Source: Owenia fusiformis (lineage: Eukaryota). Taken from it: 64,000 bases of DNA. The DNA is taken from the NCBI GenBank assembly GCA_903813345.2, contig CAIIXF020000001.1:20708001-20772000 (forward strand), given 5' to 3'. This document shows, one piece after another, positions 1,081 through 63,883 of this stretch. A program made the translations under genes and the position numbers. The number at the start of each line of letters is the position of its first letter. Positions within the stretch are counted from its first letter, which is position 1. The notes beneath the pieces are model-generated. The model made no database searches and was not told where the DNA came from. It saw only the letters and a list, made by a program, of their open reading frames with translations.

Positions 1081-4000
1081 TAAGTTTTTAGGCATTTGAA
1101 TAAAGGAGTCCTTCATAAAATTCCCAGGTTAAAAAATGAGACATATAGTCAAGCTTAGACTCAATATAGACACGTTATTTCTGAAATTGTTTGATCATTT
1201 TTTGTCACTGATTAAACTGTGAAACGGATTTTATGGAGTGTTTGTATGGCAGACTATGTAGTTGTCACATATAGGTGATGTGCTTTTAAAAGGTTTTGAC
1301 ATTTTAGTAAGTCAAGTCTGAGTGCGTTGGTTGAGAGGTATTTCTTTATTTAGTACACTACTTAGAGTTTCTATCAAATGTACAGTAACATACCGTTGAA
1401 TACCCTGATTCAGTATTGCAATGATAATAATGATTCTGTATGATATTCTAATCATAAATAAGTTCATAATGAGATTTTGAAATAATTTTAGAGACTAGTA
1501 GTTGTGGACTAGAAAAAGAAGTCCATCGGCATCTTTATTTTAGATTTTGAGGAATGTATATGTACACTCTCAAGAATTTAAAATTTTGATAGGAATGGGC
1601 AAATATAGCAGGGTCAATACAAATTTCTGTACAATGTTCTTACTGATTTCTTACTGATTACTGATTTACCAATAAATAGTGTTATTTTAGACTCATATGT
1701 CTTGTTTCACAACTTTCTTGGTTAATTTCAAATTAGTCAGACTTTTTAGATCCAAATGTTAATGTATGAACTTAAAGTGACTTACATATGTTAATAAAGC
1801 TTTGTTAACTGTTGATACAAAATTATTAAGATTGGCATTCTATATGCAATCTATTTAATGTTGAGCAGGGATTTTCTTGAAATGGTAAGTTAACTGGTAG
1901 GAATTATGTTTTCATTTAACTCATAATATGCATGTAAGTTTGAAGAACAGAGAATTGTTTGAAATTGAATTTATCTTTGAGAAGTACAATAAACAATTTT
2001 TCATTCTCTATTGAAGTCCCAGATGATGATGTATTTAAAGGGCTTAATAGGGCATAGGTGCTTAGAGAACTAAAATCTATGTTTTCATGAGGAATTTTAA
2101 TTCTGGCTTGATTTGATTTAATATGAAAAGATAAGAATGCCTGCCAAAATTTGAGAAATCTTTTAAGGAGCCGTACGCCTCATCAGTTGACTGGGTGTGA
2201 ACAATGACAAGCCCCATAGGTCTCTACCTCTGTTTAGACAACCTATATAACCCCATAGCAGTCAAGCACTTTTTTCAATTATTACCATATAATGAGATCA
2301 GTATGAACAGAATTCAATAATGCTATGGGTCCTGGTCAAATGCTTGGTACCCCTGCAAAAATGTGAATTCTCATCACTTTCAAAAATCTGAAAACTAAGT
2401 AAGAATTACTTTGAATGAGCCTGGTAGTATATTTTGCAAAATACCAATTGTTTACTTGTAAAAAACATTCTTCCAATATTTACAGAGGATCAACAAGAAA
2501 AGATTTTTATTGTGACCTGGGAAATTGTTAAGGCAGGGTGGTAGTAATATCCTGGGACCATTTTCAGAGAACATAAAGACATCAAAGGTTGAGGTATAAA
2601 CCACAGGAACCATGTACTGAAAGACTCCTTAATTCTATTCAAATGAGAAGAATTGTTATAATAGTATGATTTGTTACTTTGAGTCTCGCATCAAGTCTCT
2701 TGACCCTCCCCCTTCTATCTTTTTTACCTCCACAGATGAGGTGCGATATAGGGTCATTAGGGGGAGGGGGTATTGTAATAGGTTGAGTCAAAACTTTTTG
2801 CAACTGTTCAATATTGTTTGAGTTAATCCATGTTATACCCTAAATCACCTAGCCATAATATCCTCTGACGATTACAGATAATTTTCAGTTTTTATAAGAT
2901 AAGATCTTGAGTGAGTTTATATGTGAAATAAATGTTATCTAATTATAGACAAAAACATAGCGTGCTAATTTTTTAACTACTAATTCATTATCTGTTTGAG
3001 CGTACATTGAAATTTTCATCTTATTTAAAGAGTATTAGGAATGCTTAGATTTTAAGAAGGGTACATGTAGTCCAGCACACCGCCCTGAGAAATGCTTCAA
3101 TATGATGCAACCCTGGAATGCAACCCTCACTTTCATTTAAGACCAATTACGTTTGATCTTGTTTTTTGTATTCCTGCATCATATATTACTATACTGGTAC
3201 TAGATTTATATGTTGGAGCTTAATGTGCACTTTTTGGATTATCTTTATTTTGAAATTGTTTCGAACAGATTTAAGTCAGCCATAAGTCATAATTTCAACA
3301 AGATTTTACTCTGTAAATCCTAAGTAGTTTAGCTACAGTACAACATTTCAATAAACATTTCTAAATTATTTTTCACCTTGGTATACTGATTTGACCACTT
3401 GGGAGGTTTTAATATGGTGCTAATGTTTGCTTGTATTCAATGTAGAAGTAAAAAGAGAATTAACAGCCATCAATGGTCAATACATCTGTCCTGTGTGTTG
3501 TGAGGTGAAAATAAAACAAAACTGAGAAATAAATAGTTTATGATTAAAATATGGGTTGTCATTTGACAACATTAAAGCGATTAAAGAGGTTAAAAAACTT
3601 ATTAGACTTGTTTTAAGGTTCTTGAATAAAAGAAAAATATGCTAGCTTTTATGTAAAAAATGATTGAAGTGTCATCTGAATATAAAAGTGGAAAAGTTCA
3701 GACGATCAATTGTACATGAAGTCAATCAGGTTTATTAAAAATTGCAATATTGTCCTGTTTTAGATAAAAGTGCACTTGGACCTTTATAGACAGTCATATC
3801 TTTGTGTATACCATAGGTTTTCCACATACAATTTTAAATTATGTTATTTGAATGGGAAACCACTCATTAAGAAATTATAATGTTGATATAAACTATGAAA
3901 AGCATTATTGCCAAGTTTGTTCAAATCATGAAATACCATTTTCATAAATGATTTGTAAAAGTGAAATTTGATATTTTTCAAAAGCTTTTCTCATTTTATT

Positions 4001-4334
4001 ATATTTGTATACAGTATCTGACGGGATAAGTGATTGAGCCAAGATTTTTAAGATTAGGTCTCTGCCATTTGTCATTGTATTTATTCTTACTTCAAATAAA
4101 AATGCATAGAACTCATAAAGAAATGTTCGTCATTAGACTTACAAATATTTGTGTTAGCTTAGAAAAGAAAAAACTCAGAGGTTGAATTCCTGAAATCCTG
4201 CTGTCAAACTAAAATCAAAAGTTGAAATCAATATCCCTAATGGCTGATCAATTATATTTAACTGGCAATGAGACAAGATTTATATGCTATGAAATACGAG
4301 TAAAGTATCAAGCGTCATGTTATCTATCCCAGGG

Positions 4335-4351
4335 CATAGGCGTAGCCGGGT

Positions 4352-4385
<34 letters not shown>

Positions 4386-4643
4386 CGGTGCCATGGGTGC
4401 GATCCCATAACCCCCCCCAATAAATAATAAAAACATAACCATGAGATAGAAGAAGAAAGGGGCTTTTTATTTGAGGCTTCTAGATCAATTTAGAAGGAAA
4501 TTGTGTCAATTTTTGTAAAATTCAAGATAAATCTCATTATTTGGCTTTTTTATGCCACAATCACACCCAACCTGATTGAAAATTTTTGGGCGATTGCACC
4601 CCCCCCCCCCCCCCGTCCTGCCTGAAAGCTGGCTTCACCACTG
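4335..4643. mobile_element. CA...TG-terminal MITE with 5-bp TSD (CAGGG)
   Basis: Termini CATAGGCGTAGCC ... GGCTTCACCACTG (imperfect TIR), subterminal poly-G and poly-C tracts, CAGGG at 4330-4334 and 4644-4648. The 5' half is homologous to the arms of the 29856-30732 element. Confidence 0.75.
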
Positions 4644-5044
4644 CAGGGCTTAGTTCTCTATGCAAAATTCATGCATCCAGTTGAAGATACTTAACAGCAC
4701 TCTTCACAGACCCACAACTTCCCAGATCGTATTTTATTGAAATTGTTATCGATTTGTTTGAATTACTGTAGAATGAAGTATGTTTTTATTCCATTTGCCA
4801 TGATAGATAGTCCTTTCAGTCTCATAGTTCAGACTTTTGGATTGCTAGTTTTTGTATGCATTTACATAGGCAGTATCCAGGCATTAAGGTATTGAGAGAA
4901 TAGTTATATGGATGGAATCTGTATCTTGGTAGAGGATATTTTGGCAGGGTCAGTTTCTGGACAAAAGATAACTTATATACAAAAATATTATATAGAATGG
5001 GTAATCAGACAGAATAGATATTTAGGTAAAATACATTAATTGGG

Positions 5045-5135
5045 AGAATGCATAAATGGGTGTAGTGCTTAAATGGATGGAATGCATAAATGGGAATAAT
5101 GCTTAAATGGATGGAATATATGGGTAGAATGGGTA
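5045..5135. repeat. Short degenerate tandem repeat (~33 bp, 2-3 copies)
   Basis: GAATGCATAAATGGG....TGCTTAAATGGATG is repeated. Confidence 0.7.
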
Positions 5136-6124
5136 TCGAATAGAAGTCAAGACAGAATGGTTGCCTTTGCAGAATAAGTAGTAACTTCAATATAATGCTC
5201 GCTTTCAGTTATCGATCAAGTACTGAGGTAGCATGATATCACTCACTAAAACTAGCAAAAAAGATTGATATAATGGATTTGCATGTTCGCTTCTTTTTAT
5301 GGGAAATTGATGAGTGTGTAGACACCATATGTACCATATGATAGGGTTTAATGCTCCACTAAGAAATCAACTGATACCTCTCAATTTAGTCCTTTCTCAG
5401 TTTTTAACAAGTATATTTGGGTTTCACAACAGACAGACAAGAATTCAACCTTGAGGACATTTCAACAGAAATGGATGTAAACTATATCTCAAAATATCTA
5501 CTTGACATGGTTATAATAAAGTGGGCTGTGACATTCTACCTTATATGACTCTAAAATGCCTAACTGCAATATTAAAATTCAACATTGACATTTGATTAAA
5601 GTTATGTTTTTGTTAAAACAGGGTTGATTTGTATCTTTGGGCTGTATGTTTATGCCATAAATTCAGATATGCGAACATACTAATAATACACTCGCTGCAT
5701 GTTGCATTTTTCTAGCCGATTTCCTTTATGGAGTTTTTAAAGGAGTAACAGTCCATGATAAACGTGCATTTACCTGCGGGAATGTACCTGTAACTGCTCG
5801 TTTGTGAACTACAAGTAAAAACCTATGATCTTTACCTTGGGCTTTCTTACATTTAATACCTTCTATATTTTTTATGTCTGAATCAACTTACATTTAGAGA
5901 ACAAAGAAAAACACGATCCCGCAATATTTGTCTTTGCTGCATATGACTTATTGGGGTACTACTTATTGGGGACTCATTTTGACTCGTTCACTAGGTTACT
6001 CCAGATGTTTGTTATTTTGTTTGACTAGATTATGTCAATGTACCCAAAACCAAAAATCAACAAAATAATGTTATTGGTGGTATGTCTACTTTTTGTGTTG
6101 GCTTATGTTTGTATATATAAGTCT

Positions 6125-6409
6125 CTGTATTTTGTATTGACCTCTGTGAAGTATTACCCATTATATTTGGTAATAGCCTATATGAATATTACCATCTGTT
6201 TTTGGTATTGAGCTGTTTGAAATACTACCAACTATAATTGGTATTGACCTATATGTGTGCCTATATGTTTGTATTATCATCTATAGTAGGTATTAATCAT
6301 TTATGAAATACTACCATTCATTATTCGTATTGACCTTTATGAGATATTACCATTTATATTTGGTATTGACTGTATGAGATATTACCTTATATTGGTATCG
6401 ACCTTTGTA
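6125..6409. repeat. Degenerate minisatellite (~35-40 bp units)
   Basis: Recurring GGTATTGACCT...GAAATATTACCA motif, about 7 diverged copies. Confidence 0.75.
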
Positions 6410-6774
6410 CAGCTGGCGTAGTGTCATATACGCATAAAACGCCATGAATACTTTCAAATTTTATAGGAAAGTTATTTTTGATAAATTATGATAAGAAATG
6501 ATAGAAATGACAAATGTAAATGAGTTTTATTTCCAATAAGCACCTATTTTGTCATCCTATCATTTAAAAACATGCTCATGTTATTAAATGTTGGATAAAA
6601 ATGGCCAATAATTTATTTTTATGAGTCCAAAATAAGTCGAAATAACGTATTTTAAAACGCCCCAGAACGCTTTAAATTCAATCTCATTTTCAAAATTTCT
6701 TTGGGTAGAAGACCCCCCCCAAAAATCTTCGCTCACTCATGGCGTACACTCATAAATGCCAAGCTAAGCCACTG
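6410..6774. mobile_element. Degenerate CAG...CTG MITE
   Basis: Left end CAGCTGGCGTAG, right end GCTAAGCCACTG (revcomp CAGTGGCTTAGC). No clean TSD. It directly follows the minisatellite. Confidence 0.45.
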
Positions 6775-7124
6775 TGTTTATTACCTTCTATTACCATGGT
6801 GACCTTACTACCATCTGGTTGATGACCCCTAGCACCAAGCTTAATTAAGCATCTAATTTGGGCAATAAACGACATGTGTATCCCAGTGTTAAACAATTCT
6901 AGAGAGGGCTGATGGTAAGTGATAGTTCTAGGATTGGTTTACAACTTACCTTACAAATCATCTCTTATTTTTTAGTTACATTGTTTAGTTCCCCTTAAGG
7001 AGAATGTTTCAAAAGATTTTTATGATGCAGAGGGATTAAAGTGTGAATTCATTACTTAAGTTAGGTTCCTAATTTCCTCTACTTTCCATGGTATTTTAGA
7101 TTGAGCAATGAACATACTACCTTG

Positions 7125-8608
7125 GGCATGAACTTGGTGTAAGACCACACGAAATTTAGTGTATTATATGTATAATATAAAAGTATATATTATATATATA
7201 GTAATAATATTATTAAATGGCTTATTATATATATAATATAATATAAGAGTATATGTTATATATAGTTATGTATTATATTCTTGTAAATGTGTATATGCAT
7301 GTATTTATTTATATATTTGTCTCCTCTGGTCCCCAGTCCCCAGTCCCCAGTAGCTATATATATATTTATATCGGTCTCCAGTCCCTCCTTTATATATGTT
7401 TGTGCATATGCATTTACATGTATTTATTTATATATTTGTCTCCTCTGGTCCCCAGTCCCCAGTCCCCAGTAGCTATATATATATTTATATTGGTCTCCAG
7501 TCCCTCCTTTATATATGTTTGTGTATATGCATAAACATGCATCTATTTATATATTAGTCTCCTCCAACTGCTTTATATATAGGATAGTTTTTTTTGAAAA
7601 ACGATTTTGACTTTAAAGCCCTATAAATTTGTTACACTTTAAGAAACATATCAATTTTTGTTAAATAAAGTTATCAAATTCAATTGCCTGCCTAACTCAT
7701 ATTTTTGCAAGGACTCAGATGGATGGATATTCTGTCATATGACTTGCGGCAAACCTACCATTTCCCATTGGTTAACATGGAAATGTCGATTTTAAAAATT
7801 CATCAAATTTATCATCGATTTTCGACTTATTCTAATTGAGGAAAAAAATTGAGAAAATTTGGTAATCATGGGGGGCTTTAAAGTCAAAATTGTTTTTCAA
7901 AAAAACCTCTCCTATATATGTATATAGTAAATGGGGACTGGGGATCAGAAGAGACTAATATATAAATAGATGCATGTATATGCATATACACAAACATATA
8001 TAAAGGAGGGATTGGAGACTGATATAAATATATATATAGCTACTGGGGACTGGGGACCAGAGGAGACTAATATATAAATAGATGCATATATATACATAAT
8101 AAAGGAGGGACTGGAGACCGATATAAATATATATGTAGCTACTGGGGACTGGGGACTGGGGACCAGAGGAGACTAATATATAAATAGATGCATGTATATG
8201 CATATACATAAACATATATAAAGGAGGGACTGGAGACCAATATAAATATATATATAGCTACTGGGGACTGGGGACCAGAGGAGACTAATATATAAATAAG
8301 TACATGTATATGCATATACATAAACATATATAAAGGAGGGACTGGAGACCAATATAAATATATATATAGCTACTGGGGACTGGGGACCAGAGGAGACAAA
8401 TATATAAATAAATATATGCATATACACATTTACAAGAATATAATATATAACTATATATATAACATATACTTTTATATTATATTATATTATATATATAATA
8501 CGCCATTTAATAATATTATAACTACATATATAATATATACTTTTATATTATATTATATTATACATATAATACACTAAATTTCGTGTGGTCTTACACCAAG
8601 TTCATGCC
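7125..8608. mobile_element. Foldback-type non-autonomous DNA transposon with long tandem-repeat-containing inverted arms
   Basis: Perfect terminal IR GGCATGAACTTGGTGTAAGACCACACGAAATTTAGTGTATTATATGTATAAT. Arms run ~7125-7622 and ~7870-8608 around a ~250-bp spacer and contain a ~120-bp unit (GTCCCCAGTCCCCAGTAGCTATATA...) in ~2 copies left and ~4 right. Flanking direct repeat CTACCTTG at 7117-7124 and 8609-8616. Confidence 0.92.
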
Positions 8609-9324
8609 CTACCTTGCCATTTGTGTAGAATTGTAGTGCCATAAATCATGTACCTCTGTAATACTCCCATAGCGCAGACTGCAGACAAGTAGCTGAAGAG
8701 TTGTAGAATATGGGCTGGGTAAATTCTTGCCATTTTCATTGGTAATTTCCTTAAGTTGTTATTTGACAGTGAAAATGTCACCATGATTAAGAGTTTAATC
8801 CGGTTGGTGAGAAGAACTGAGAAAGTCTTACTGGTGGAAGGCAGAAATGTCACTACAAACAGCAAAATCGGCATTACCACCCCTGTCTTTGTAATGAATC
8901 AACTCATTATATTGTGCCATATATGTGAATGCTCATTACAAAGGAATGACACTTACATGAAAACCATTCATAGTAATGTAATGCCCTGTTTATTTATTAT
9001 ATATACATGTACAAGTATTGTCACATTCTAGTCTAAAACATTTTTCTCAGTTGGGTACCATCATACTTGAGTTTCATACCCTTTGCGTTTGTTCGACTTG
9101 GATTTTCAAAAGAGAGATTTGTTTAGACTCTGTAGGCAGGTTTTGAGTTTTTGAAGCTGCAAAATCAACCTACTATAGGACACAACCACCTGTCACTTGG
9201 GGACCAATGATTTTGTCTTATCTGTCATTTTTGTAATTGGTTACCCTTTGCATTCGTTTGACTTCACTTCTTAAAAGAGAGCTTCGTCTTCTCTCTTTCA
9301 AACTATTATAAACATGTGAACTCA

Positions 9325-9555
9325 CCGCGCCAATCAGTGTTCGTGGGCCAAATTTGACCGACGTTCTATATATGGTCATTCCTTCTGACGTCATCGTTGA
9401 GCCCGGAATTGACCAATGACATGCGCATATTTAATTAGAACGTTTTTGGCGAATGTTACTTCAAGCTCGCTGATTGGTGGAAGAAAGGTCAGCGCGTAGG
9501 TCAGAAGTGATTTATTACCCAAACTGTCACCAGTACCCGTCGTGGGGGCGGGACT
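9325..9555. promoter_or_regulatory. CpG-rich patch with a cluster of promoter-type motifs (possibly repeat-borne)
   Basis: CCAAT at 9330 and 9413, ATTGG at 9473, full CRE TGACGTCA 9386-9393, TGCGCA 9422, GC box GGGGCGGG 9544-9551, all within a CpG-poor background. Confidence 0.35.
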
Positions 9556-12500
9556 ACTTAACTGTAATATGGTCTCTACTAGGCAGAGTGTAGTTTAACT
9601 AGACTCTGCATGCAGGGTAGTAATTGGTAGATATAGTGTAATTGATATAATTTTAAATTATACTAAATGGTACATTCATTAGCAGGTGGTAAATACTAAA
9701 TACATGTTGTACATTTAGGATTATGTCATATTGTACTCGATCATTGTATGGCTGATTTTTTAAAGAGAATTTATTCTTTTGGAGGAACAGACTAAACCTG
9801 AATCTGCTGAATGTATAATATCATTCATAAAAGTTAACATACAATGTAACATTTTGTACAATCAATTGTTTCATGAATGTAATAAAATAAGAGGTTCCTC
9901 TTTAATAAGAGGATTCAAGATCCAGTTATATATGACCTGGCATTAAAAAACAGTTTTCATTCTGGATAACTAAGTCAGAAAATTGAGAGAAAAAACTCTA
10001 TTTTAAAATATATTGGTAGAATGCTCCACATCATCCACAATCAAATTTTGGATGTAAAAATAGACACGATCCTGGTTCTGCCTAGAAGACCTTTTTTTCT
10101 TCTGTTTCATTTTTGAGTTATGTAATGCTGACTAATGTCTAACACGACTGCAGTATTTTCCTTAAGTGATTTATCAACTTGAACCCTCTGCTAAATTTCA
10201 CTTCTCACATAGTGAAAGTTCAAAACGTCATACGTCTAATGTGAAATAAAAAATTCCAATGATCTGATGATAGTGTAGTGAAATTTGTAAACAAAAAATG
10301 TTTTGTGTAAATTTCTTTATGTTCTGAGAGGATGTGGTGCCTCACGCTTGCAGATTGGAGACGCAATCAATCATTTAATTGAATGCTGGGATATTATATA
10401 ACGATCCCACACAAAATGTTAATGGCTCAGGTTTCTGTTTAAAATGCCTCATTTGTTGATCAGTAGAAAGAATGAAAAATGATGGTAATCAAATACACTC
10501 CCTAGCTATATGGGAGTGTAAGAAAAAGCTCATTTTCAGACAAATCATATAAGGTTGCAAAAATGCTATAAAATAGTCTAGAAGCTAACTGGTTTATATT
10601 GTACCTTTAGTACCTTACATTCCGGCAACTTTGGGTTATCATTGTTGCGAACAAATCGCATCAACAGAATCTAAAAATAAAGCAAAATTCGCAATTTAAT
10701 AGCTCACCATTAAGTTACTTGACTATTATTTTAAGAATATTTTCAGACAACACGTTTTTTGCTATACTCGAGAGTCCAGTTTGTTGCCCCATGTGGCACA
10801 AATCAAAGATATGATACAACTTATACAGATATAAATGAGTAAAGAGAGTTAGTTTTCCTCCCATATATCTCCTGTGGTTGAACAGTCTCCTGAGGGAGAT
10901 GCTATTATAAATGCCATGTGATATGGTTCTTAATAGAATCTAAAGAAAGTTGCAAGATATATGGCATGTATTACCAAATTATTACCAAACATGTATTACC
11001 TATCATTCTATTGAGTGATTGCCATGGCAACAGGGAAAGCAACAGGATTAGAAGGAGCTTAAAACAACGAATTCACAATTTTTCTTAACTAGATCTACAT
11101 AAAGGAGATAAAAAATCTTTTTGTCCTATTATATCTATTAGATATTATTGCATAAAAATCTCTGCCTGTCAAGAGAATCACCATGGTTATTGAAACAATG
11201 AAATTTGAACCAAATCAGTCTGCATCCATCATGATAAATCATATGACATTTTATTTTTTCTCATGACAGAAAGATATGAGTTACAGTAGTTTCATTGTTA
11301 AAGACAGGAATCCTAATTCAGGAATCATAATTCACAATATTTTACCCTGTGTTGTGATAAAAATCATCTTACTTGTTTCAATGTCTGACCATCTCAAAGG
11401 GGATTAGTCTGGAAGGAAGTCCCAAATTAACTCATGGATCAGTGAGGACTTTATCATTCTTTCAATTTCACTCCAAAGTGAATTGACTTGATCCATGTCT
11501 TAATCCCATCTTATATCCTAAATGGGACACTATTGTAAGTCTTTGACCAAGGGGATTAGATAGAATCTGGAAGTTAAAGTCAGATGAGAGTTCTTTGGAC
11601 CTCAGTTTATAAATTCAAAAATAAGTATTTTATCACTGAGTGATAATCTATTAACAAACCGCTTCTCATTTCCCAAATCCCAACTACATGTATAACTATG
11701 GAAGGTATAAAGGAAAAACCTTGTATAAAGGATTTTGTACCCAAGGCATATTTAACAAGTATCTTGGTAAAGTGACTGCCCATTGAAAGAATGTCATTGC
11801 AAGGTCATTTAAAATACAATATACTGTAGAAAGAAATGGAAGGAGATATATTACCCTGAGGACATTACCATGCATTATATAAAAGTTTAACAAAATATTA
11901 CTTTTAATCCAGATTTAGAGAGAAATGGCATATCATAATAAACATAAGTGATATCCTAACCACTGGGTTCTGTCTATGTTATATGTTTTCTAAGTTTGTT
12001 CTAACTGATTGACGAGTGATTTATTTGTATGTTTTGACAGTGGGTTGTGTATTTGAATGTCCCAACACACGCCACACTGCCAGAACATCTGTTTTCCACC
12101 AATATACTGTTTAGTTAACACTAGGAATTAATAACCCAAAGTGCTCTATGAAATTGAGATAAACTAAAACCTTATGTTTTGCTACAGGTTTTTACACTTT
12201 ATTTTGAAATTTGATAATCTCGTTCAGATAAATCTTCTCATTGCCAGGATAGTTTATTGCACTTGAAATTGGACTTGAAATAATGTGGCTTGCTCTACCT
12301 AATTAGCAATAAGAAATTTAGGAGTTCAGTTTATAATAATCTTACAAATTCATTGATTTGATATTGAACTTGAAGTATTGTGGCTTGCTTAAATAACCCT
12401 TTCGCAGAGTACTGAATGGAAAATGCAACAATTAGACTGATTAATGTTTAATCATATTTATGTTTCCATCATATCAAACCCCAAGCTTACAAATTGTTCT

Positions 12501-13114
12501 ACCTCTGGTTTAACAAAAGGAAATAACCAAGGACTGGTAACAATGGGCAATGGGGTTATATTTGTGGTCGACATTTGAGACGCAGGAAATTGCAAGCGTG
12601 GGCAGTATGTCAATACCCCTGAACTATGGAGGATTAACAAATTGTAATCCTTTTTAAATTTCCAACCCATGACTCAGTCTATTGCAGAGTCACAATAATT
12701 GAACATTTTTTCATGCTTTTCCCCAGATATTAAATGCAGTCTGACCAGCCACATTTTAATCTTGAGGGTATATTTACTGCAATGAAATATTTCAGAGGAG
12801 TCATTTACATCGGAAATTGTCAAAAATCTCACTTTTAATCAAATTATTATCAGACAGAGCAATCTTAAAGATGTTGCTGCAGTGCAGAGGCAACTGATGT
12901 CACTCAGTATATACCTTTGAGAGAGAAGCTGTTTCTGAACCAGATGCTCTCTTATATTCTCCCAAGGTATTTCCTCAACATTACCAGCTTTGAACAGAGA
13001 AAATGTAACAATTGATGCATTTGGATATCACTGAAATCGTAAGACTTAAAACAGGACATATGTTTTATCATGGGCTTTCAACTTACTTATTGAAAGTCCA
13101 TGGTTTTATATATT

Positions 13115-14943
13115 ATGTCACCACCAAAAGTGGTGACATATTGTTATGGTCTCCGTTTTTTTGCGACGGCGGTTGGAGGTTGGCGTCCGGCGTCCGGCGG
13201 TTGGTGGTTGGCGTCCGGCGTCTGTAACAATTTCTTACAACTTCCTATAACTTAACAAATACTGTTTAGACTGACTTCAATTTTTTTCTAAATCATCTAC
13301 ATGTTCTCAGAAGTTCAAATCTGACTTTAGATTTGACATTTGACCTTCAATGACCTTCTCAAGGTCAAAAAGGTCTTTTTTCAACTTGCTTCACATTGAC
13401 TAAATTTTTTTTCAAAATCATCTACATGTTCTCAGAAATTCAAATCTGACTTTAGATTTGACATTTGACCTTCAAATCTGACTTTAGATTTGACATTTGA
13501 CCTTCAATGACCTTCTCAAGGTCAAAAAAGGTCAAAAAGGTCTGTTTTCAACTTGCTTCAAATTGACTAAAAAAATTTTTCAAAATCATCTACGTGTTCT
13601 CAGAAATTCAAATCTGACTTTAGATTTGACATTTGACCTTCAATGACCTTCTCAAAGTCAAAAAAGGTCAAAAAGGTCTTTTTTCAACTTGCTTCAAATT
13701 GACTAATTTTTTTTTTCAAAATCATCTACATGTTCTCAGAAATTCAAATCTGACTTTAGATTTGACATTTGACCTTCAATGACCTTCTCAAGGTCAAAAA
13801 AGGTCAAAAAGGTCTGTTTTCAACTTGCTTCAAATTGACTAAAAATTTTTTTAAAAATCATCTACATGTTCTCAGAAATTCAAATCTGACTTTAGATTTG
13901 ACTTAAGATTTGACATTTGACCTTCAATGACCTTCTCAAAGTCAAAAAAGGTCAAAAAGGTCTTTTTTCAACTTGCTTCAAATTGACTAAAAAAATTTTT
14001 CAAAATCATCTACATGTTCTCAGAAATTCAAATCTGACTTTAGATTTGACATTTGACCTTCAATGACCTTCTCAATGTCAAAAAAGGTCAAAAAGGTCTT
14101 TTTTCATCTTGCTTCAAATTGACGAAATTTTTTTTTCAAAATCATCTACATGTTCTCAGAAATTCAAATATGTCTTTAGATTTGACATTTGACCTTTAAT
14201 GACCTTCTCAAGGTCAAAAAAGGTCAAAAAGGTCTGTTTTCAAATTGCTTCAAATTGACCAAATTTTTTTTTCAAAATCATCTACATCTTTTCAGAAGTT
14301 CAAAGGACGATTCTCGGTTTGGAGAACAGTCTCCTGGGCTAATATTTTTTTTCATGAAAAATATAGAAATGTTACCCAAATTAAACTATGAATATTCAAA
14401 AGAGCACATTTAAATCTACAAGATGTAAAAATATCAAATTGGTCTGGAGCAGGGATAACGCTCAATTAGACGGATTTTAATAAAATACAAGTCTCGATTT
14501 GGGGAAAGAAGTTCATCAGTGTACTGCGCTAATATTTTTTTGAGAAAAATCTAGAAATATTACCCAAATTAAATTATGACTATTCAAAAGAGGACATTCA
14601 AATCTATATTATGTAAAAAAATCAAGTTTGTCCGAAGCAGGGATAATGCTCATTTAGATTGATGAACTTCGTTCTCCAAACCGAGAATCGTCCTTTGACT
14701 TTTACAAGTTCTCAGAAGTTCAAATCTGACTTTAGATTTGATTTTTGACCTTCAATGACCTTCTCGAGGTCAAAAAGGTATTTTTTCAACTTGCTTCAAA
14801 TTGACGATTTTTTTTTCAAAATCATCTACATGTTCTAAGAAGTTCAAATCAAACCTTCTTAAGGTCAAAAGGTATTTTCCAACTTGCTTTAAATTGTCCA
14901 AATTGTTTTAGGTGGTGACATTTTGTCATGTTAATGCCTTGTT
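13115..14943 (+). mobile_element. HINE-like element, family B, copy 1, with ~120-bp internal tandem array
   Basis: 5' hairpin ATGTCACCAC-CAAAA-GTGGTGACAT, then a GGCGTCC/GGTTGG microsatellite-like tract and about 9-10 tandem ~115-135-bp units (TTCAACTTGCTTCAAATTGAC...TGACCTTCTCAAGGTCAAAA). 3' subterminal GGTGGTGACAT, end GCCTTGTT. Flanked by TT on both sides with no TSD. Near-identical copy at 30968-32141. Confidence 0.88.
14300..14698. mobile_element. MITE-like insert within the HINE-B array
   Basis: Perfect 28-bp TIR TCAAAGGACGATTCTCGGTTTGGAGAAC / GTTCTCCAAACCGAGAATCGTCCTTTGA. The interior is two diverged ~190-bp direct repeats. Absent from the sister copy at 31-32 kb. Confidence 0.85.
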
Positions 14944-30791: not shown

Positions 30792-30817
30792 CATGGGCTT
30801 TCAATTGAAAGCCCATG
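30792..30817. other. Perfect 26-bp palindrome, possibly the terminal hairpin of a decayed minus-strand HINE-like fragment
   Basis: CATGGGCTTTCAA|TTGAAAGCCCATG. The palindrome is certain; the interpretation is inference. Confidence 0.6.
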
Positions 30818-30967
30818 CCTACATGATAGGTACATTTTAAAATATAACATTATGGGGGTAAGCGTTTCATAGCTGGTCACAACGCCAGAAGTGCAAGAAT
30901 ATTGTTCCGAATTTTTGAATTTCGTGTTAGATTACGGTACTCACACCTGAAGCATGGTTTTTTTTTT

Positions 30968-32141
30968 ATGTCACCACCAAAAGTGGTGACATATTGTTAT
31001 GGTCTCCGTTTTTTTTGTGACGGCGGTTGGTGGTTGGAGGTTGGCGTCCGGCGTCTGTAACAATTTCTTACAACTTCCTATAACTTTACAAATACTGTTT
31101 AGACTGACTTCAATTTTTTTCTAAATCATCTACATGTTCTCAGAAGTTCAAATCTGACTTTAGATTTGACATTTGACCTTCAATGACCTTCTCAAGGTCA
31201 AAAAGGTCTTTTTTCAACTTGCTTCACATTGACTAAATTTTTTTCAAAATCATCTACATGTTCTCAGAAATTCAAATCTGACTTTAGATTTGACTTTAGA
31301 TTTGACATTTGACCTTCAAATCTGACTTTAGATTTGACATTTGACCTTCAATGACCTTCTCAAGGTCAAAAAAGGTCAAAAAGGTCTGTTTCAACTTGCT
31401 TCAAATTGACTAAATTTTTTTTTCAAAATCATCTACGTGTTCTCAGAAATTCAAATCTGACTTAAGATTTGACTTAAGATTTGACATTTGACCTTCAATG
31501 ACCTTCTCAAGGTCAAAAAAGGTCAAAAAGGTCTGTTTTCAACTTGCTTCAAATTGACTAAATTTTTTTTTCAAAATCATCTACGTGTTCTCAGAAATTC
31601 AAATCTGACTTTAGATTTGACTTTAGATTTGACATTTGACCTTCAATGACCTTCTCAAAGTCAAAAAAGGTCAAAAAGGTCTTTTTTCAACTTGCTTCAA
31701 ATTGACTAAATTTTTTTTCAAAATCATCTACATGTTCTCAGAAATTCAAATCTGACTTTAGATTTGACATTTGACCTTCAATGACCTTCTCAATGTCAAA
31801 AAAGGTCAAAAAGGTATTTTTTCATCTTGCTTCAAATTGACTAAAAAATTTTTTCAAAATCATCTACATGTTCTCAGAAATTCAAATATGACTTTAGATT
31901 TGACATTTTACCTTCAATGACCTTCTCAAGGTCAAAAAGGTCTTTTTTCAACTTGCTTCAAATTGACTAATTTTTTTTTTCAAAATCATCTACATGTTCT
32001 CAGAAATTCAAATCTGACTCTAGATTTGACATTTCACCTTTAATGACCTTCTCAAGGTCAAAAAAGGTCAAAAAGGTCTGTTTTCAACTTGCTTCAAATT
32101 GACCTTTAGGTGGTGACATTTTGTCATGTTAATGCCTTGTT
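30968..32141 (+). mobile_element. HINE-like element, family B, copy 2, nested in the 29458-32640 element
   Basis: Same 5' hairpin, microsatellite, tandem units (about 8) and 3' end (AGGTGGTGACATTTTGTCATGTTAATGCCTTGTT) as 13115-14943. Inserted after a poly-T run. Confidence 0.9.
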
Positions 32142-56539: not shown

Positions 56540-57730
56540 TTCAGGTATTGAATTTGCCCTTGGTGCACTTAGATAACTAATGTTCTTTATTCAGATTAAG
56601 ATCAATTTGACCTCACTTTTTTTATTTATATTCCACTTATTTATAACTTTTTTCCATAATATTCCAACTGTTGTTTAATCAGGTATGGTGAGTTTGTCAC
56701 AATGATTAAGCACTCGCTCATTATTCTACTGAACCAAAAAATAAAAAGTAACTTAGGTTAAAATGCCAATCTGCCATGAAATGTCTCCTGGAGTTTCATG
56801 ACAATTGCCCAGGAATTATCAGTGGGTAAAAAAGCATTTGTTGCTTCAAACACTGAAAATTAAAAAAATCATGAAAAATTGGATATTTTGACCATATTTG
56901 AGCATTCTCATTCAGAATTGTCAGAATACAAATTTTGTACTTTGTTAAAAAGAAAGCCTGGGAAGGCCACTTTATTCAAAGCATTTTAGATTATTTATCA
57001 TGTTTGAACTTTTAGACATGGTTGGAGATCTACTTATAGTTGATGGAAAACTCACAATTCATGGATCTTCTTTCAAGTTGGTCAAATTAACCTTATTTCA
57101 CCTTGAGATGACAGCATTGACATTCAATTAGTGACTCTAAAATACATCAATTGCTCATGAGCAATATACCATTCCAGCCATAGTGATATTATTTGCATTT
57201 TAAGCAATTAGGTAAAGCTCTATAAGAGCGACACTTCATCACTTTTGACAGCTTTACTATTTCTTCACTTGATGGATCTGTCACATCAGAGCGCATTGAC
57301 ATTATATAAGTGATGAGGTAAAACCTTGAAACTTAAAATGAATGCTATACAATGAGGCAAATATTATATGAGTATGGCCAATTGAGTAAGAGATCAGACA
57401 AATGGTTTCACAAATTAATGTATTTTTAGTTTTGCTTCAAGCCCCCGTGACCCCGTCCCTCCACATACCTCATCTTTGAATATGAAGTAGAAGTAGGGAG
57501 GGGGTCTGGAGATTTGATGTAAGAGTAGTATAATATAGATACAAGTTTACATGTGAATTTCATGAAAATATATATCAAACTTGTGAATATAAAAAATATT
57601 TTGAAATGTTTCACAATTTAAATTATTTATGTTTTATATTGCATGGGTTATGGTTGAGAATCGGGATATGATAAAAAAAATATTATATACATGTAATCAC
57701 TGAATTTGTATTTGTATGTCAAAATTATTT

Positions 57731-60700
57731 ATTAGGAGGCCCCAACGGGGGGCCTCCTATAGATTTTATAGATATTATTTATTAGGAGGCCCCAACGGGG
57801 GGCCTCCTATAGATTTTATAGATATTATTTATTATTCTTTATTAGGAGGCCCCATCGGGGGGCCTCCTATCAATTTTGTAGATATTATTCTTTATTCTTT
57901 ATTATTAGGAGGCCCCATCGGGGGGCCTCCTATCAATTTTGTAGATATTATTATTATTATTATTATTATTATTTATTCTTCCTCCCTCTTTTTCTCCTAC
58001 TTCCAACTACCTTTCAACTAGGTACTACATAGTCCTACTAGGGACCTGGGCTGAACTTGGCGGGAAAGGAATTTTTATCTAGGTCAAGATCAAAGGTCAA
58101 AATCTAGGTCAAATCAAAGCTTTTTTCAAGTTTCTCAAATCCTGACACTACACTTCAATATTTTTGGCTGAATTTTTGCATACTGATAGATATTAGTATT
58201 CTATTAGTCTTAGCCTTTTGCCGTCTAGAGAAATTTTGCCCAGATTTTGAGATATTGAAGGTCAAAAAAGGTCAAAAAAGGTCTTTTTTCAACTTGCTTC
58301 AAATTGACCAATTTTTTTTTTAAAACTCATCTACAAGTTCTCAGGATTCCAAATCTGACCTTACTTTTGACCTTTGACCTTTGGTTGACCTTCAATGACC
58401 TCCAGGGGTACAAAAAGTTGATTTTTCAAATCGATTTTCTGGATTCAAATTTAGGTATATTTAGTCACAAAGGACCCACTGAGGTCTAAAAAAGTAAAAT
58501 TTGCAAGGTCAAAGGTCAAGGTCATATAACTAAATCACAAACTGTGTTTTCTAAGTTTCTCAAAATTGGTAACTACAAATCAATATTTTTTCATGAAAGT
58601 CAGGATATATATTCCTCTATAGGTTCTACACATATTAGCAATTGACTATTTATTAAAATTGTGTACCAGTTTTGAGATATTGGAACTCAAAAACTGAAAA
58701 AAGGTCAAATTTCGAAACTTTTCAAGACTAAATTTCAACTTGCTTCAAATTGACCAATTTTTTTTTAAAACTCATCTACAAGTTCTCAGGATTCCAAATC
58801 TAACCTTACTTTTGACCTTTGACCTTTGGTTGACCTTCAGTGACCTCCGAAAGGTCAAAAAAGTTGATTTTTCAAATCGATTTTTTGGATTTAAATTTAG
58901 GTATATTTAGTCACAAAAGACATACCGAGGTCTAAAAAAGTAAGATTTGCAAGGTCAAGGTCAAAGGTCAAGGTCATCAAGCTTAATCACAAACTGTGTT
59001 TTCTAAGTTTCTCAGAATTGGTGACTACAAATCAATATTTTTTAATGAAAGTCAGGATATATATTTCTCTAAAGGTTCTACACATATTAGCTATTCATAT
59101 ATGATCTTAAATTTGATATTTAACCTTTAGTTGACCTTCTAATTGGCAATGCCTACAGGGCCTCCGTAAGATTGCTTGCAATCTTCTAGTTATTATTTAT
59201 TCTTCCTCCCTCTTTTTCTCCTACTTCCAACTACCTTTCAACTAGGTACTACATAGTCCTACTAGGGACCTGGGCTGAACTTGGCGGGAAAGGAATTTTT
59301 ATCTAGGTCAAGGTCAAAGGTCAAAATCTAGGTCAAATCTAAGTTTTTTTCAAGTTTCTCAAATCCTGACACTACACTTAAATATTTTTGGCTGAATTTT
59401 TTCACACAGATAGATATTAGTATTCTATTAGTCTTAGCCTTTTGCCGTCTAGAGAAATTTTGCCTAGATTTTGAGATATTGAAGGTCAAAAAAGGTCAAA
59501 AAAGGTCTTTTTTCAACTTGCTTCAAATTGACCAAATTTTTTTTAAAACTCATGTACAAGTTCTCAGGATTCCAAATCTGACCTTACTTTTGACCTTTGA
59601 CCTTTGGTTGACCTTCAGTGACCTCCGAAATGTCAAAAAGTTGATTTTTCAAATCGATTTTCTGGATTCAAATTTAGGTATATTTATTCACAAAAGATCT
59701 TCTGAGGTCTAAAAAAGTAAAATTTGCAAGGTCAAAGGTCAAGGTCATCAAACGAAATCACAAACTGTGTTTTCTAAGTTTCTCAAAATTGGAGACTACA
59801 AATCAATTTTTTTTACTGAAAGTCAGAATATATATTCCTCTATAGGTTCTACACATATTAGCAATTGACTATTAATTAAAATTTTGCTCCAGTTTTGAGA
59901 TATTAGAACTCAAAAACTGAAAAAAGGTCAAATTTCAAAATTTTTCAAGGTCAAATTTCAACTTGCTCTAAATTGACCAAACTTTTTTTTAAAAAGCATC
60001 TACAAGATCACAGGAACTCAAATCTGACCTTAGTTTTGAACTATGACCTTTAGTTGACCTTCAGTGACCTTCGAAAGGTCAAAAAAGTTAATTTTTCAAA
60101 TTGATTTTCTGGATTCAAATTTAGGTTTCTTCAATCAGAAAAGATATACTGAGGTCTAAAAAAGTAAAACCTGTAAGGTCAAAGGTCAAGGTCATCAAAC
60201 AAGATCACAAACTGTGTTTTCTATGTTTCTCAAAGTTTGTGACTACAAATCAATATTTTTGAATTAAAGTCAGGATATATATTCCTCTAAAGCTTTTACA
60301 CATAATAACAATTGATTATCTATTAAAATTCTGCACCAGTTTTGAGATATTGGACCTCAAAAACTGAAAAAGGTCTAATGTTGAAATTTTTCAAGGTCAA
60401 ATTTCACATTGCTTCAAAATGACCAAACTTTTTTTTAAAAATCATCTACAAGATGCCTGGAGTTCATATATGTCCTTGTATTTAAGATTTGACCTTTGGC
60501 TGACCTTTAAATGTTCAAAAAAGCCTACGGGGCCTCCGTAAGATTGCTTGCAATCTTCTAGTTCTTTATTATTATTTATTCTTCCTCCCCCTTTTTCTCC
60601 TACTTCCAACTAGCTTTCAACTAGCTACTACATAGTCTTACTAGGGACCTGGGCTGAACTTGGCGGGAAAGGAATTTTTATTTAGGTCAAGGTCAAAGGT

Positions 60701-63367
60701 CAAAATCAAGGTCAAATCTAAGTTTTTTTCAAGTTTCTCAAATCCTGACACTACACTTCAATATTTTTGGCTGAATTTTTGCATACCGATAGATATTAGT
60801 ATTCTATTAGTCTTAGCCTTTTGCCGTCTAGAGAAATTTTGCCTAGATTTTGAGATATTGAAGGTCAAAAAAAGGTCAAAAAAGGTCTTTTTTCAACTTG
60901 CTTCAAATTGACCAAATTTTTTTTTAAAACTCATCTACAAGTTCTCAGGATTCCAAATCTGACCTTATTTTTGACCTTTGACCTTTGATTGACCTTCAGT
61001 GACCTCTGAAAGGTAAAAAAAGTTGATTTTTCAAATCAATTTTCTGGATTCACATTTAGGTATATTTATTCACAAAAGACCTTCTGAGGTCTAAAAAAGT
61101 AAAATTTGCAAGGTCAAAGGTCAAGGTCATCAAACGAAATCACAAACTGTGTTTTCTAAGTTTCTCAAAATTGGAGACTACAAATCAATTTTTTTTACTG
61201 AAAGTCAGAATATGTATTCCTCTAAAGGTTCTACACATATTAGCAATTGACAATTTATTAAAATTTTGCTCCAGTTTTGAGATATTAGAACTCAAAAACT
61301 GAAAAAAGGTCAAATTTCGAAATTTTTCAAGGTCAAATTTCAACTTGCTCTAAATTGACCAAACTTTTTTTTAAAACTCATCTACAAGTTCTCAGGATTC
61401 CAAATCTAACCTTACTTTTGACCTTTGATCTTTGGTTGACCTTCAGTGACCTCCGAAAGGTCAAAAAAGTTGTTTTTTCAAATCGATTTTCTGGATTCAA
61501 ATTTAGGTATATTAATTCACAAAAGACCTTCTGAGGTCTAAAAAAGTAAAATTTGCAAGGTCAAAGGTCAAGGTCATCAAACGAAATCACAAATTGTGTT
61601 TTCTAAGTTTCTCAAAATTGGAGACTACAAATCAATATTTTTAAATGAAAGTCAGAATATATATTCCTCTACTAAAGGTTCTACACATATTAGCAATTGA
61701 TTATCTATTAAAATTTGGCTCCAGTTTTGAGATATTATAGCTCAAAAACTGAAAAAAGGTCAAATTTCGTAAATTTTTCAAGGTCAAATTTCAACTTGCA
61801 TTAATTCGACCAAACCTTTTTTAAAAATCATCTACAAGTTGTCTGGAGTTCATATATGACCTTGTATTAGAGATTTGACCTTTGGCTGGCCTTTGAATGT
61901 TCAGAAACGAATATAGGGCCTCCGTAAGATTGCTTGCAATCTTAGATCGTTAGATCTCTAGTTATTATTTATTCTTCTCTGCACTTTTTCTCCTACTTCT
62001 AACTAGATTTCAACTATCTACTATATGAACCTACTAGGGACCTAGGTTGAACTTACCGGGAAAGGAATTTTTATCTAGGTCAAGGTCAAAGGTCAAAATC
62101 TAGGTCAAATCAAAGTTTTTTCTAAGTTTCTCAGATTTCGTCCTCATACTTCATTATTTTTTGCGATGAATTAAAATGTAACTAGATATAAGCATTCCCT
62201 ACAAATTACTCACTATATGTTCGCGTTAATTTTTTACCGTTTTTGAGATAATTGACGTAAAAAAACGGTAAAAATTGGTCATTTTTCAACTTGCTTCAAA
62301 TTGACCAATTTTTTTTTTTAAAATCATCTACAAGTTCTCAGGAACTCAAATCTGACCTTAGTTTTGACCTTTGACCTTTGGTTGACCTTCAGTGACCTTC
62401 GAAAGGTCAAAAAAGTTGATTTTTCAAATTGATTTTCTGGATTCAAATTTAGGTACATTTGATCACAAAAGACCCACTGAGGTCTAAAAAAGTAAAATTT
62501 GCAAGGTCAAAGGTCAAGGTCATCAAACTAAATCATAAACTGTGTTTTCTAAGTTTCTAAGTTTTGGTGACTACAAATCAATATTTTTTCATGAAAGTCA
62601 GGATATATATTCCTCTATAGGTTATACACATATTAGCAATTGACTATTTATTAAAATTGTGTACCAGTTTTGAGATATTAGAACTCAAAAACTGAAAAAA
62701 GGTCAAATTTCGAAACTTTTCAAGACTAAATTTCAACTTGCTTCAAATTGACCAAATGTTTTTTTTAAAATCATCTACAAGTTCTCAGGAACTCAAATCT
62801 GACCTTAGTTTTGACCTTTGACCTTTGGTTGACCTTCAGTGACCTTCTAAAGGTCAAAAAAGTTGATTTTTTAAATTGATTTTCTGGATTCAAATTTAGG
62901 TATATTTGATCACAAAAGACCCACTGAGGTCTAAAAAAAGTAAGACTTGCAAGGTCAAAGGTCAAGGTCATCAAACTTAATCACAAACTGTGTTTTCTAA
63001 GTTTCTAAGTTTTGGTGACTACAAATCAATATCTTTTCATGAAAGTCAGGATATATATTCCTCTATAGGTTCTACACATATTAGCAATTGACTATTTATT
63101 AAAATTGGGTACCAGTTTTGAGATATTAGAACTCAAAAACCGAAAAAAGGTCTAATGTTGAAATTTTTCAAGGTCAAACTTCACATTGCTTCAAATTGAC
63201 CAAACTTTTTTTTTAAAATCATCTACAAGATGCCTGGAGTTCATATATGACCTTGTTTTTAAGATTTGACCTTTGGCTGACCTTTAAATGTTCAAAAAAG
63301 CCTACGGGGCCTCCGTAAGATTGCTTGCAATCTTTATACGATTGCTTGCAATCTTATACATCTAGTT
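57731..63367 (+). mobile_element. Stack of four HINE-like family C elements (4 heads then 4 bodies/tails)
   Basis: Hairpin heads TAGGAGGCCCC-A(A/T)CGG-GGGGCCTCCTA at 57731, 57781, 57841 and 57904, then an (ATT)n tract. Four bodies start TATTCTTC.. and contain ~445-bp internal repeats. Each ends GGGCCTCCGTAAGATTGCTTGCAATCTT...CTAGTT, at 59191, 60563, 61963 and 63367. Confidence 0.9.
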
Positions 63368-63539: not shown

Positions 63540-63883
63540 ATCCCATTGAACGAAGTTAGGTGGGATATATGAAACACCTCCGTCCCTCTGTCCATCTGTC
63601 CGTCCGGGCAATAACTCAAATACCATTGGCCCAATTTTGTTCCTATTTTGTACACATATACCCTATGGAGGTAGAAGTTCTGCTCGAAAGCCGATCTTCA
63701 AAATGGCCACTCATTTGAAAATGGCGGCTATTTTAGTGCTGATTTTACAGTAATTTAGATACAATATGTAAAAATGACACTTTTGGTAGAAGGCGACCAT
63801 TTTGAAAATGGCACACTGTCTAGTGACACTTTTTGTAGAAGGTGGAATTTGCTACGCTTTGACGTTTTGGTTGTTGTCTAGTT
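63540..63883 (+). mobile_element. HINE-like element, family A, short complete copy
   Basis: 5' IR TATCCCA...TGGGATA, (TCCG/TCTG)n-like microsatellite at 63579-63607, a body matching window bases 1-95 plus one collapsed repeat unit, and 3' GCTACGCTTTGACGTT...CTAGTT. Confidence 0.8.

Follow-up and report, generated by a model that had tools for sequence, protein, structure and literature searches.

The question raised by the locus described here is how four copies of the 5' end of a transposable element came to stand in a row, ahead of four copies of everything that would normally follow such an end. The locus occupies positions 57731 to 63367 of a 64,000-nucleotide stretch of DNA from Owenia fusiformis (assembly GCA_903813345.2, contig CAIIXF020000001.1, positions 20,708,001 to 20,772,000 of the forward strand; this whole stretch is called the window below, and all coordinates refer to it), and the element concerned fits, by its architecture, a HINE-like non-autonomous Helentron-type rolling-circle transposon. 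An earlier note on this DNA had described four hairpin heads followed by four bodies, and had proposed that the element had repeatedly inserted into itself. The best explanation in our view, held with a little better than even confidence, is indeed that four co-oriented copies of one family lie nested by self-insertion as E1[E2[E3[E4]]] (E1 being the outermost layer and E4 the innermost), and it is preferred because heads and tails are equal in number and mirrored in order, and because cutting out the inner layers cleanly restores four canonical elements.

The order of parts is simple to state. Unique AT-rich DNA extends up to 57732 and is followed by four heads, a 31-nt ATT-type tract and then four long units, with no head between the bodies and no tail between the heads; the description in the earlier note is thereby confirmed (heads at 57733-57932, tails extending to 63367, no interleaving). 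Each head contains a palindrome of the form AGGAGGCCCC-N5-GGGGCCTCCT, found on the + strand at 57734, 57784, 57844 and 57907 and nowhere else in the 64-kb window, and a search with this head pattern gave 8 matches, both strands of the palindrome being counted, as against 0 in 100 shuffles. If the flanking T and A are included the geometry is the same in all four cases, namely 27 nt comprising an 11-bp stem and a 5-nt loop: H1 lies at 57733-57759, H2, which is identical to it, at 57783-57809, H3, with the loop variant ATCGG, at 57843-57869, and H4 at 57906-57932, the cores of H3 and H4 being identical to one another. Two of the heads, when folded as single-stranded DNA, gave -13.5 kcal/mol, with z values of -4.7 and -5.6. 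In every head AGGAGGCCCC begins 1 nt after the proposed terminal T, as a 5' subterminal inverted repeat (subTIR), and a complementary inverted repeat is present close behind it. The gaps between successive head palindromes are 23, 33 and 36 nt, and are made up in each case of a constant 14-nt post-hairpin stretch, ending in a TAGAT motif, followed by 9, 19 or 22 nt of ATT/CTTT-type simple sequence.

The four headless bodies (B1 to B4) are of 1.25-1.4 kb each and form one repeat family, starting at 57966, 59190, 60569 and 61962, with the last terminus reaching 63367. A 28-nt tail string, GGGCCTCCGTAAGATTGCTTGCAATCTT, occurs at 59158, 60530, 61916 and 63307, always on the + strand and with 0 mismatches (0 occurrences being expected by chance), and each of the four tails is followed by CTAGTT, ending at 59191, 60563, 61963 and 63367. 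Within the tails the 3' subTIR GGGCCTCC, which is the reverse complement of GGAGGCCC, stands next to a hairpin AAGATTGC-TT-GCAATCTT, and both are identical in all four. Every body also carries a satellite-like internal tandem repeat of 447 bp (8.2 copies in total according to Tandem Repeats Finder, TRF), and the ATT-type tract appears in TRF as a microsatellite of period 3 with 9.3 copies at 57946-57973, at the end of the left module. These structural features are also what the assignment to an element class depends upon, and here the view taken in the earlier note, that this is a Helentron/HINE-type element, fits every structural feature that was tested. As regards coding sequence for an autonomous partner, the window contains one stop-to-stop frame of at least 150 amino acids, of 189 amino acids; it is the autonomous partner, having Rep-helicase and endonuclease domains and shared termini, that separates Helentron from Helitron2 (statements on the literature, here and below, refer to the parts of each source that were covered).

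If the four copies are nested, then the layers can be removed in turn, starting from the inside, and at each step what remains should be an intact outer copy; this is what is found. The innermost layer, E4, is a complete element of 1285 bp on the + strand (57906-59190), comprising H4, the 31-nt ATT-type tract, a unique left-flank region, about 2.3 units of the 447-bp repeat and a tail, of which the subTIR GGGCCTCC lies at 59158-59165 and the hairpin AAGATTGC-TT-GCAATCTT at 59168-59185, the terminus being CTAGT. Cutting out 57906-59190 restores E3, whose 5' part (57843-57905, also on the + strand, as are all the parts that follow) consists of H3, the post-hairpin stretch TCAATTTTGTAGAT and the microsatellite part ATTATTCTTTATTCTTTATTAT, and whose remainder, B2 (59191-60562), opens with what is left of the microsatellite, TATTATTTATT, and goes on through about 3 internal repeat units to a canonical tail. 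Cutting out 57843-60562 restores E2 from H2 with the microsatellite part ATTATTTATTATTCTTTAT (57783-57842) and from B3 (60563-61962), in which the rest of the microsatellite, beginning TCTTTATT, is followed by the body and by a tail with a 13-nt insertion. Finally, cutting out 57783-61962 restores E1, formed on its 5' side (57733-57782) by the terminal T, H1, the post-hairpin stretch TAGATTTTATAGAT and the first 9 nt of an ATT-type microsatellite up to the proposed insertion point, and on its 3' side by B4 (61963-63366), with the rest of the microsatellite, a divergent left-flank variable segment and a tail with a duplicated hairpin. Restored in this way, at a junction of the form T↓T (the arrow marking the proposed point of insertion), the elements measure 1454 (E1), 1460 (E2), 1435 (E3) and 1285 bp (E4), with a single head, a single microsatellite (20-37 nt) and a single tail apiece. 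The restored tract of E2 rebuilds a motif, ATTCTTTATTCTTTATTATT, that is intact in E3, and since three distinct assignments of the microsatellite parts are possible this rebuilding should be given a weight of at most about threefold.

Two of the tails show peculiarities of their own. The 13-nt insertion in T3 (61944-61957) lies between the hairpin and CTAGT and forms a second small hairpin, and in T4 (63319-63359) the 3' hairpin is duplicated as a 21-bp tandem repeat, this outermost tail folding at -16.1 kcal/mol.

The junctions themselves have much in common. The proposed target site in the host is AAAATTATTTAT↓TATAGATT (ATTTAT↓TATAG) and those within the elements are GATATTATTTAT↓TATTATTT, ATTATTCTTTAT↓TCTTTATT and ATTCTTTATTAT↓TATTATTT, so that all four junctions share ...T(T/A)TAT↓T(A/C)T, with TT on both sides of each; this common motif fits the published preference of such elements for TT without target duplication (PMC4067079, PMC7492417). 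The left boundary at 57733/57734 seen in contigs of other individuals (discussed below), taken with the TT at every junction, fits an element of the form T-AGGAGG...CTAG-T placed between a T and a T. In the proposed course of events E1 would have inserted between T and T of the host DNA, and each later copy would have entered at T↓T within the ATT-type tract of the copy already resident, 9-22 nt behind the head motif, in a transposition of its own. TT dinucleotides number 8, 15, 13 and 11 on the + strand of the restored tracts and 0 on the - strand, which means, though the earlier note does not raise this, that an element inserting at T↓T can enter the tract only in the orientation of the resident, as is in fact observed; every newcomer would thus have been forced into line. 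All four copies would share one plan (terminal T, head hairpin, short ATT-type microsatellite, variable segment, 2-3 units of the 447-bp repeat, 3' subTIR, 3' hairpin, CTAGT), and inserting each into the last would leave the four heads side by side with all the headless bodies behind them, so that a tandem array with a 1.4-kb unit would arise although nothing had been duplicated. More tentatively, the ATT-type microsatellite behind the 5' hairpin might act as a strand-specific landing pad, used by the machinery that transposes this very family.

Comparison of the bodies yields evidence of a more mixed kind. Pairwise identities are 0.916 for B1-B2, 0.928 for B1-B3 and 0.927 for B2-B3, B4 being more distant (0.85-0.87, with B4-B3 the least alike of all pairs at 0.851); B1 is without about 150 nt, and the variable left-flank segment of B4 (alignment columns 200-300) is just 48-61% identical to the other three. 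The bodies are not recent duplicates of one another, and their character as four distinct members of a family (identities of 0.85-0.93, the gap of about 150 nt in B1 and the variant tails T3 and T4) speaks for nesting. They are also mosaics built up in blocks. B1, B2 and B3 agree in alignment columns 0-330, being 93-100% alike there with B4 alone standing apart, which contradicts the placing of body 3 among the "more divergent" bodies in the earlier note; the partners then change, from B1-B4 and B2-B3 in columns 500-820 to B1-B3 and B2-B4 in columns 820-950, and at the 3' end it is B2 and B4 that go together. Among the 40 sites that are informative in dividing the bodies two by two, 24 support 1+4 against 2+3, 12 support 1+3 against 2+4 and only 4 support 1+2 against 3+4.

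It is this last figure that bears most directly on what had been expected. The earlier note had predicted from the head types that heads 3 and 4 would be linked with bodies 1 and 2, and heads 1 and 2 with bodies 3 and 4, and a grouping carried by 4 of 40 sites runs counter to that; the case made there for nested self-insertion therefore keeps the equal mirrored counts and the restored elements but loses its support from haplotypes. Several other observations also have to be set against nesting. H1 and H2 had been called alike, and so they are, but this understates the matter, as with their surroundings they form a perfect 50-bp tandem repeat (57724-57834, 111 bp, 100% matches), yet no two bodies are less alike than B4 and B3, with which they would be paired. 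The 10-mer ATTATTTATT is present before H1, before H2 and after H2, making an ideal substrate for slippage, and a recent slippage duplication of one head would account for the identity of H1 and H2 more simply, but would leave three heads for four bodies. Of the three inner junctions between a tail and the next body, T1-B2 and T3-B4 have the same sequence (CTAGTT followed by ATTATTTATTCTTC), something that tandem duplication would yield free and for which nesting needs the same site to have been hit twice. There is no age gradient to be found among the layers, the private changes numbering 27 in B1, 29 in B2 and 21 in B3, and at several sites B2 and B3 follow the majority of the family while B1, supposedly the youngest, does not. 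Lastly, with 15,415 TT sites in the window (both strands), three hits within 20-37 nt would demand a strong preference for something beyond TT. The microsatellites of E2 and E3, both of which bear CTTT, agree with the commonest grouping of the bodies (24 of 40 sites), and sequential pairing agrees with it equally.

A strong preference of this sort for the tract is plausible. A lepidopteran Helitron-like family reportedly (Coates 2010, by title) "disrupts (GAAA)n microsatellites". HINEs are described as preferring T-rich DNA (PMC4067079), and Helitrons of Paramecium aim at telomeric repeats, which gives a precedent for rolling-circle elements targeting simple repeats. Strong self-targeting, as the earlier note proposed, would follow if three copies did indeed enter such a tract.

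Further evidence comes from other sequenced material. The stretch is present in 17 sequencing runs, of which 15 carry one organism label and two are metagenome runs in which it makes up small shares. Positions 57300-58300 were compared with contigs of three individuals and with the raw reads of a fourth, leaving out as repeat 57883-57988, where H4 joins its body; the raw-read run has zero depth on the left flank and is uninformative for the locus. The left flank (57300-57732) is single-copy, at a depth of about 20-94, and is matched by contigs of the three other individuals. All four flank contigs listed across the junction of flank and head (from 3 individuals; the listing gives the longest pieces, beyond which there are 6722 more) stop fitting at 57733/57734 and then run on for 62, 40, 42 and 175 letters without a match anywhere on the compared stretch. 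A contig built from 31-mers can enter a high-copy head by at most 30 letters, so these haplotypes must carry something else at this point. The point at which they stop is where the predicted empty site, ATTTAT↓TATAG, would stop matching, and what they carry may be that empty site; the stack thus looks like an insertion allele, apparently lacking in three other individuals. The left flank in their contigs differs from the window by about 0-7%, from which it follows that the species is highly polymorphic, and bodies that differ by 7-15% would not easily have diverged so far on the spot within an insertion allele, a consideration that favours four different source copies.

Read depth shows in addition that the family is very abundant. 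Summed contig depths reach 43,406 for the heads and 78,000-154,000 for the body start as against 20-94 for the flank (these being sums rather than copy numbers), so that in the runs compared heads and bodies exceed the flank in depth by a factor of 100-10,000. The depth ratio of the two head types differs between runs, which indicates separate variants of the family rather than a fixed four-hairpin module. In these runs the summed depth is 2-8 times as great at the body start as over the heads, and although these again are sums and not copy numbers, headless bodies may be common, a further point on the side opposed to nesting.

The alternative that survives best is one we regard as rather unlikely: the 50-63 bp head unit of one element, or of two at most, would have grown into a minisatellite through slippage or unequal exchange involving the ATT-type direct repeats on either side of the hairpin, the headless 1.4-kb unit would have been multiplied separately, and block-wise gene conversion would then have made the mosaic, the 4:4 ratio being a coincidence. 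The perfect H1-H2 tandem with ATTATTTATT on both sides of the unit, the identical cores of H3 and H4 and the identical T1-B2 and T3-B4 junctions are all in keeping with this, and the blocks of 100-300 columns that are 97-100% identical in changing pairs of bodies are what conversion of one neighbour by another would be expected to leave behind; there are moreover reports of Helitron arrays in which many 5' ends are accompanied by one 3' end (Xiong 2016, via PMC12628747). Set against it are the divergence of 7-15% among the bodies, with the left segment of B4, the 150-nt gap of B1 and three types of tail, and the appearance of other individuals without the insertion. It leaves the equality of head and tail numbers unexplained, the right flank is without the ATT-type homology that unequal exchange of a headless 1.4-kb unit would use, and tandem Helitron copies are described as 3'-truncated, not headless (PMC7492417).

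Distinctly improbable, to our minds, is the formation of the whole stack in one aberrant rolling-circle event (by template switching, re-initiation at a head and read-through of tails), or its formation as a composite elsewhere followed by movement as a single H1-T4 unit. The stack does seem to be present or absent as a block when three other individuals are compared, and bypass of termination with formation of concatemers is accepted for Helitrons (PMC12628747, PMC4067079, PMC8268682). However, replication round a circle gives head-body-head-body, copies made in a single event should be near-identical whereas these bodies differ by 7-15%, and movement of a ready-made unit would have to ignore three good terminators (T1 and T2 being canonical), quite apart from the fact that most such products would be unequal in heads and tails. 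An ordinary rolling-circle concatemer is rejected on the order of parts alone, and insertion of each copy beside the previous tail is rejected likewise, as it would interleave heads and bodies; nor does the locus resemble those rolling-circle amplified Helitron arrays in which many 5' ends go with only one 3' end, there being four complete 3' ends here. A mis-assembly of this repeat-rich stretch from reads of different copies, for which the abundance of the family (100-10,000 times the depth of the flank) would give occasion, is very improbable indeed: heads would not normally end up sorted from bodies, four and four, by faulty joining, every junction lies at T↓T and restores canonical elements, and the four bodies are distinct and not collapsed.

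The window contains other repeats that may be described alongside the stack. A second HINE-like family is represented by two copies, at about 13114-14935 and at 30967-32135, with one head and one tail each; the head, TATGTCACCACC-AAAAG-TGGTGACATA, has the same 11+5+11 geometry, the tandem repeats are of 136-148 bp, and part of the 447-bp unit of the stacked family is related to these repeats in both elements. The microsatellite of the second family is GC-rich, of GGCGTCC/GGTTGG type and without a TT-rich tract, and its tail, GGTGGTGACATTTTGTCATGTTAATGCCTTGTT, combines the complementary subterminal repeat with a hairpin and ends in TT. Inside the tandem array of the first copy is an insert of about 390 bp (14300-14697) with perfect terminal inverted repeats of 26 nt (AAAGGACGATTCTCGGTTTGGAGAAC and its reverse complement), which looks like a miniature inverted-repeat transposable element (MITE) or foldback element nested in the HINE. 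A palindromic motif, CATGGGCTTTCAATTGAAAGCCCATG, lies some 50-175 bp before both copies, perfect at 30792 (30792-30817) and interrupted at 13066 (13066-13100). It may be that the mobile unit of the second family extends beyond the HINE, or that another element is carried along with it. Elsewhere, a tandem array at 341-893 with a period of 116-154 bp is 88-96% similar to short stretches in the right flank of the stack (63680-63845), forming another dispersed repeat family, and 112-119-bp tandem repeats with GGGGACTGGGGAC motifs occur at 7298-8428, in inverted orientation in two neighbouring arrays.

Searches outside the window added little. The head and tail patterns gave 0 matches in public metagenome contigs, and the sole match of the head pattern in viral contigs proved to be an unrelated palindrome with a different loop in AT-rich, phage-like sequence. 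Two matches of the head in prokaryote genomes (metagenome-assembled genomes of Acidimicrobiia) were taken as chance palindromes, given that they match on both strands and lie in bacterial records. For the motif strings of both families in the literature, unrelated papers alone were found among the matches listed.

What hangs on the choice between these explanations is the origin of satellite-like DNA. In the genomes of bivalves, satellite-like repeats are carried chiefly by HINE and Helentron elements (PMC7492417, PMC8268682, PMC12628747), and the route from such elements to tandem arrays is debated, rolling-circle concatemers, unequal exchange and multiple insertion all having been considered. 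A clean, co-oriented self-nest of four layers, if that is what this is, would represent a further route, giving an array of near-full-length units together with a separate stack of 5' hairpins, and it would lead one to expect a target preference that can be measured and that goes well beyond TT alone; the four-unit array, with its 1.4-kb unit, that would arise as a by-product is relevant to how HINEs seed satellite DNA. Were the microsatellite really a landing pad, newcomers would pile up inside residents in a common orientation, leaving stacked heads and 1.4-kb units already in tandem, so that a rolling-circle transposon could become a satellite with no duplication, and there would be a functional reason for HINEs to keep their microsatellite module. 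If heads and bodies were instead amplified independently, this would be an ordinary "shuffled" HINE locus of the sort already described in oysters.

As to known systems, the closest in plan is the Cg_HINE family of the Pacific oyster (Vojvoda Zeljko et al. 2020, PMC7492417), in which a 5' subTIR with a complementary inverted repeat 1-12 bp away is followed by a short variable microsatellite, a variable segment, central satellite-like tandem repeats, and a 3' subTIR with a palindrome; these elements prefer TT or T-rich targets without target duplication, and their modules recombine mosaically (PMC7492417). The same plan of modules is seen here, the comparison being one of architecture alone and not of sequence identity, but the internal repeat is of 447 bp and the microsatellite is ATT-type, whereas that of Cg_HINE is mostly of 4-nt motifs such as GTCY, and self-nesting in several layers is not described for the oyster elements in the parts of that paper covered. 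DINE-1/HINE elements (Thomas, Vadnagara & Pritham 2014, PMC4067079) again share the plan, with a subTIR 2-4 nt from the 5' end and an inverted repeat beside it, a microsatellite, optional tandem repeats, a 3' stem-loop, T's at the termini and insertion into T-rich DNA without modification of the target; their 3' subTIR is reported at 38-60 bp from the end, compared with 33 nt here. Related insertions are said there to cluster and even to adjoin one another directly (PMC4067079), which is adjacency rather than ordered nesting within the element's own microsatellite.

Nested and clustered insertions of transposons, Helitrons included, are in themselves well known (PMC12628747, PMC4067079, PMC5932611). 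For an ordered, co-oriented self-nest of four layers in an element's own microsatellite, or for the strand argument given above, no report was found in the open-access Helentron/HINE literature as far as this was covered (PMC7492417, PMC4067079, PMC12628747, PMC8268682, PMC5932611, PMC13085455), which is not to claim that none is in print. The type of element is known, and what would be new is the four-deep directional self-stacking. The arrays of Xiong, Dooner & Du (2016, via PMC12628747 and PMC8268682) likewise stack 5' ends, but are without matching 3' ends, of which there are four here, equal in number to the heads. Repeated insertion of one family at a preferred site is also known to produce tandem copies that can seed satellites without an initial duplication (McGurk & Barbash 2018, PMC5932611); the elements in those cases make target-site duplications and form head-to-tail dimers, whereas here there is no duplication, and it is insertion just inside the 5' end that would separate the heads from the bodies.

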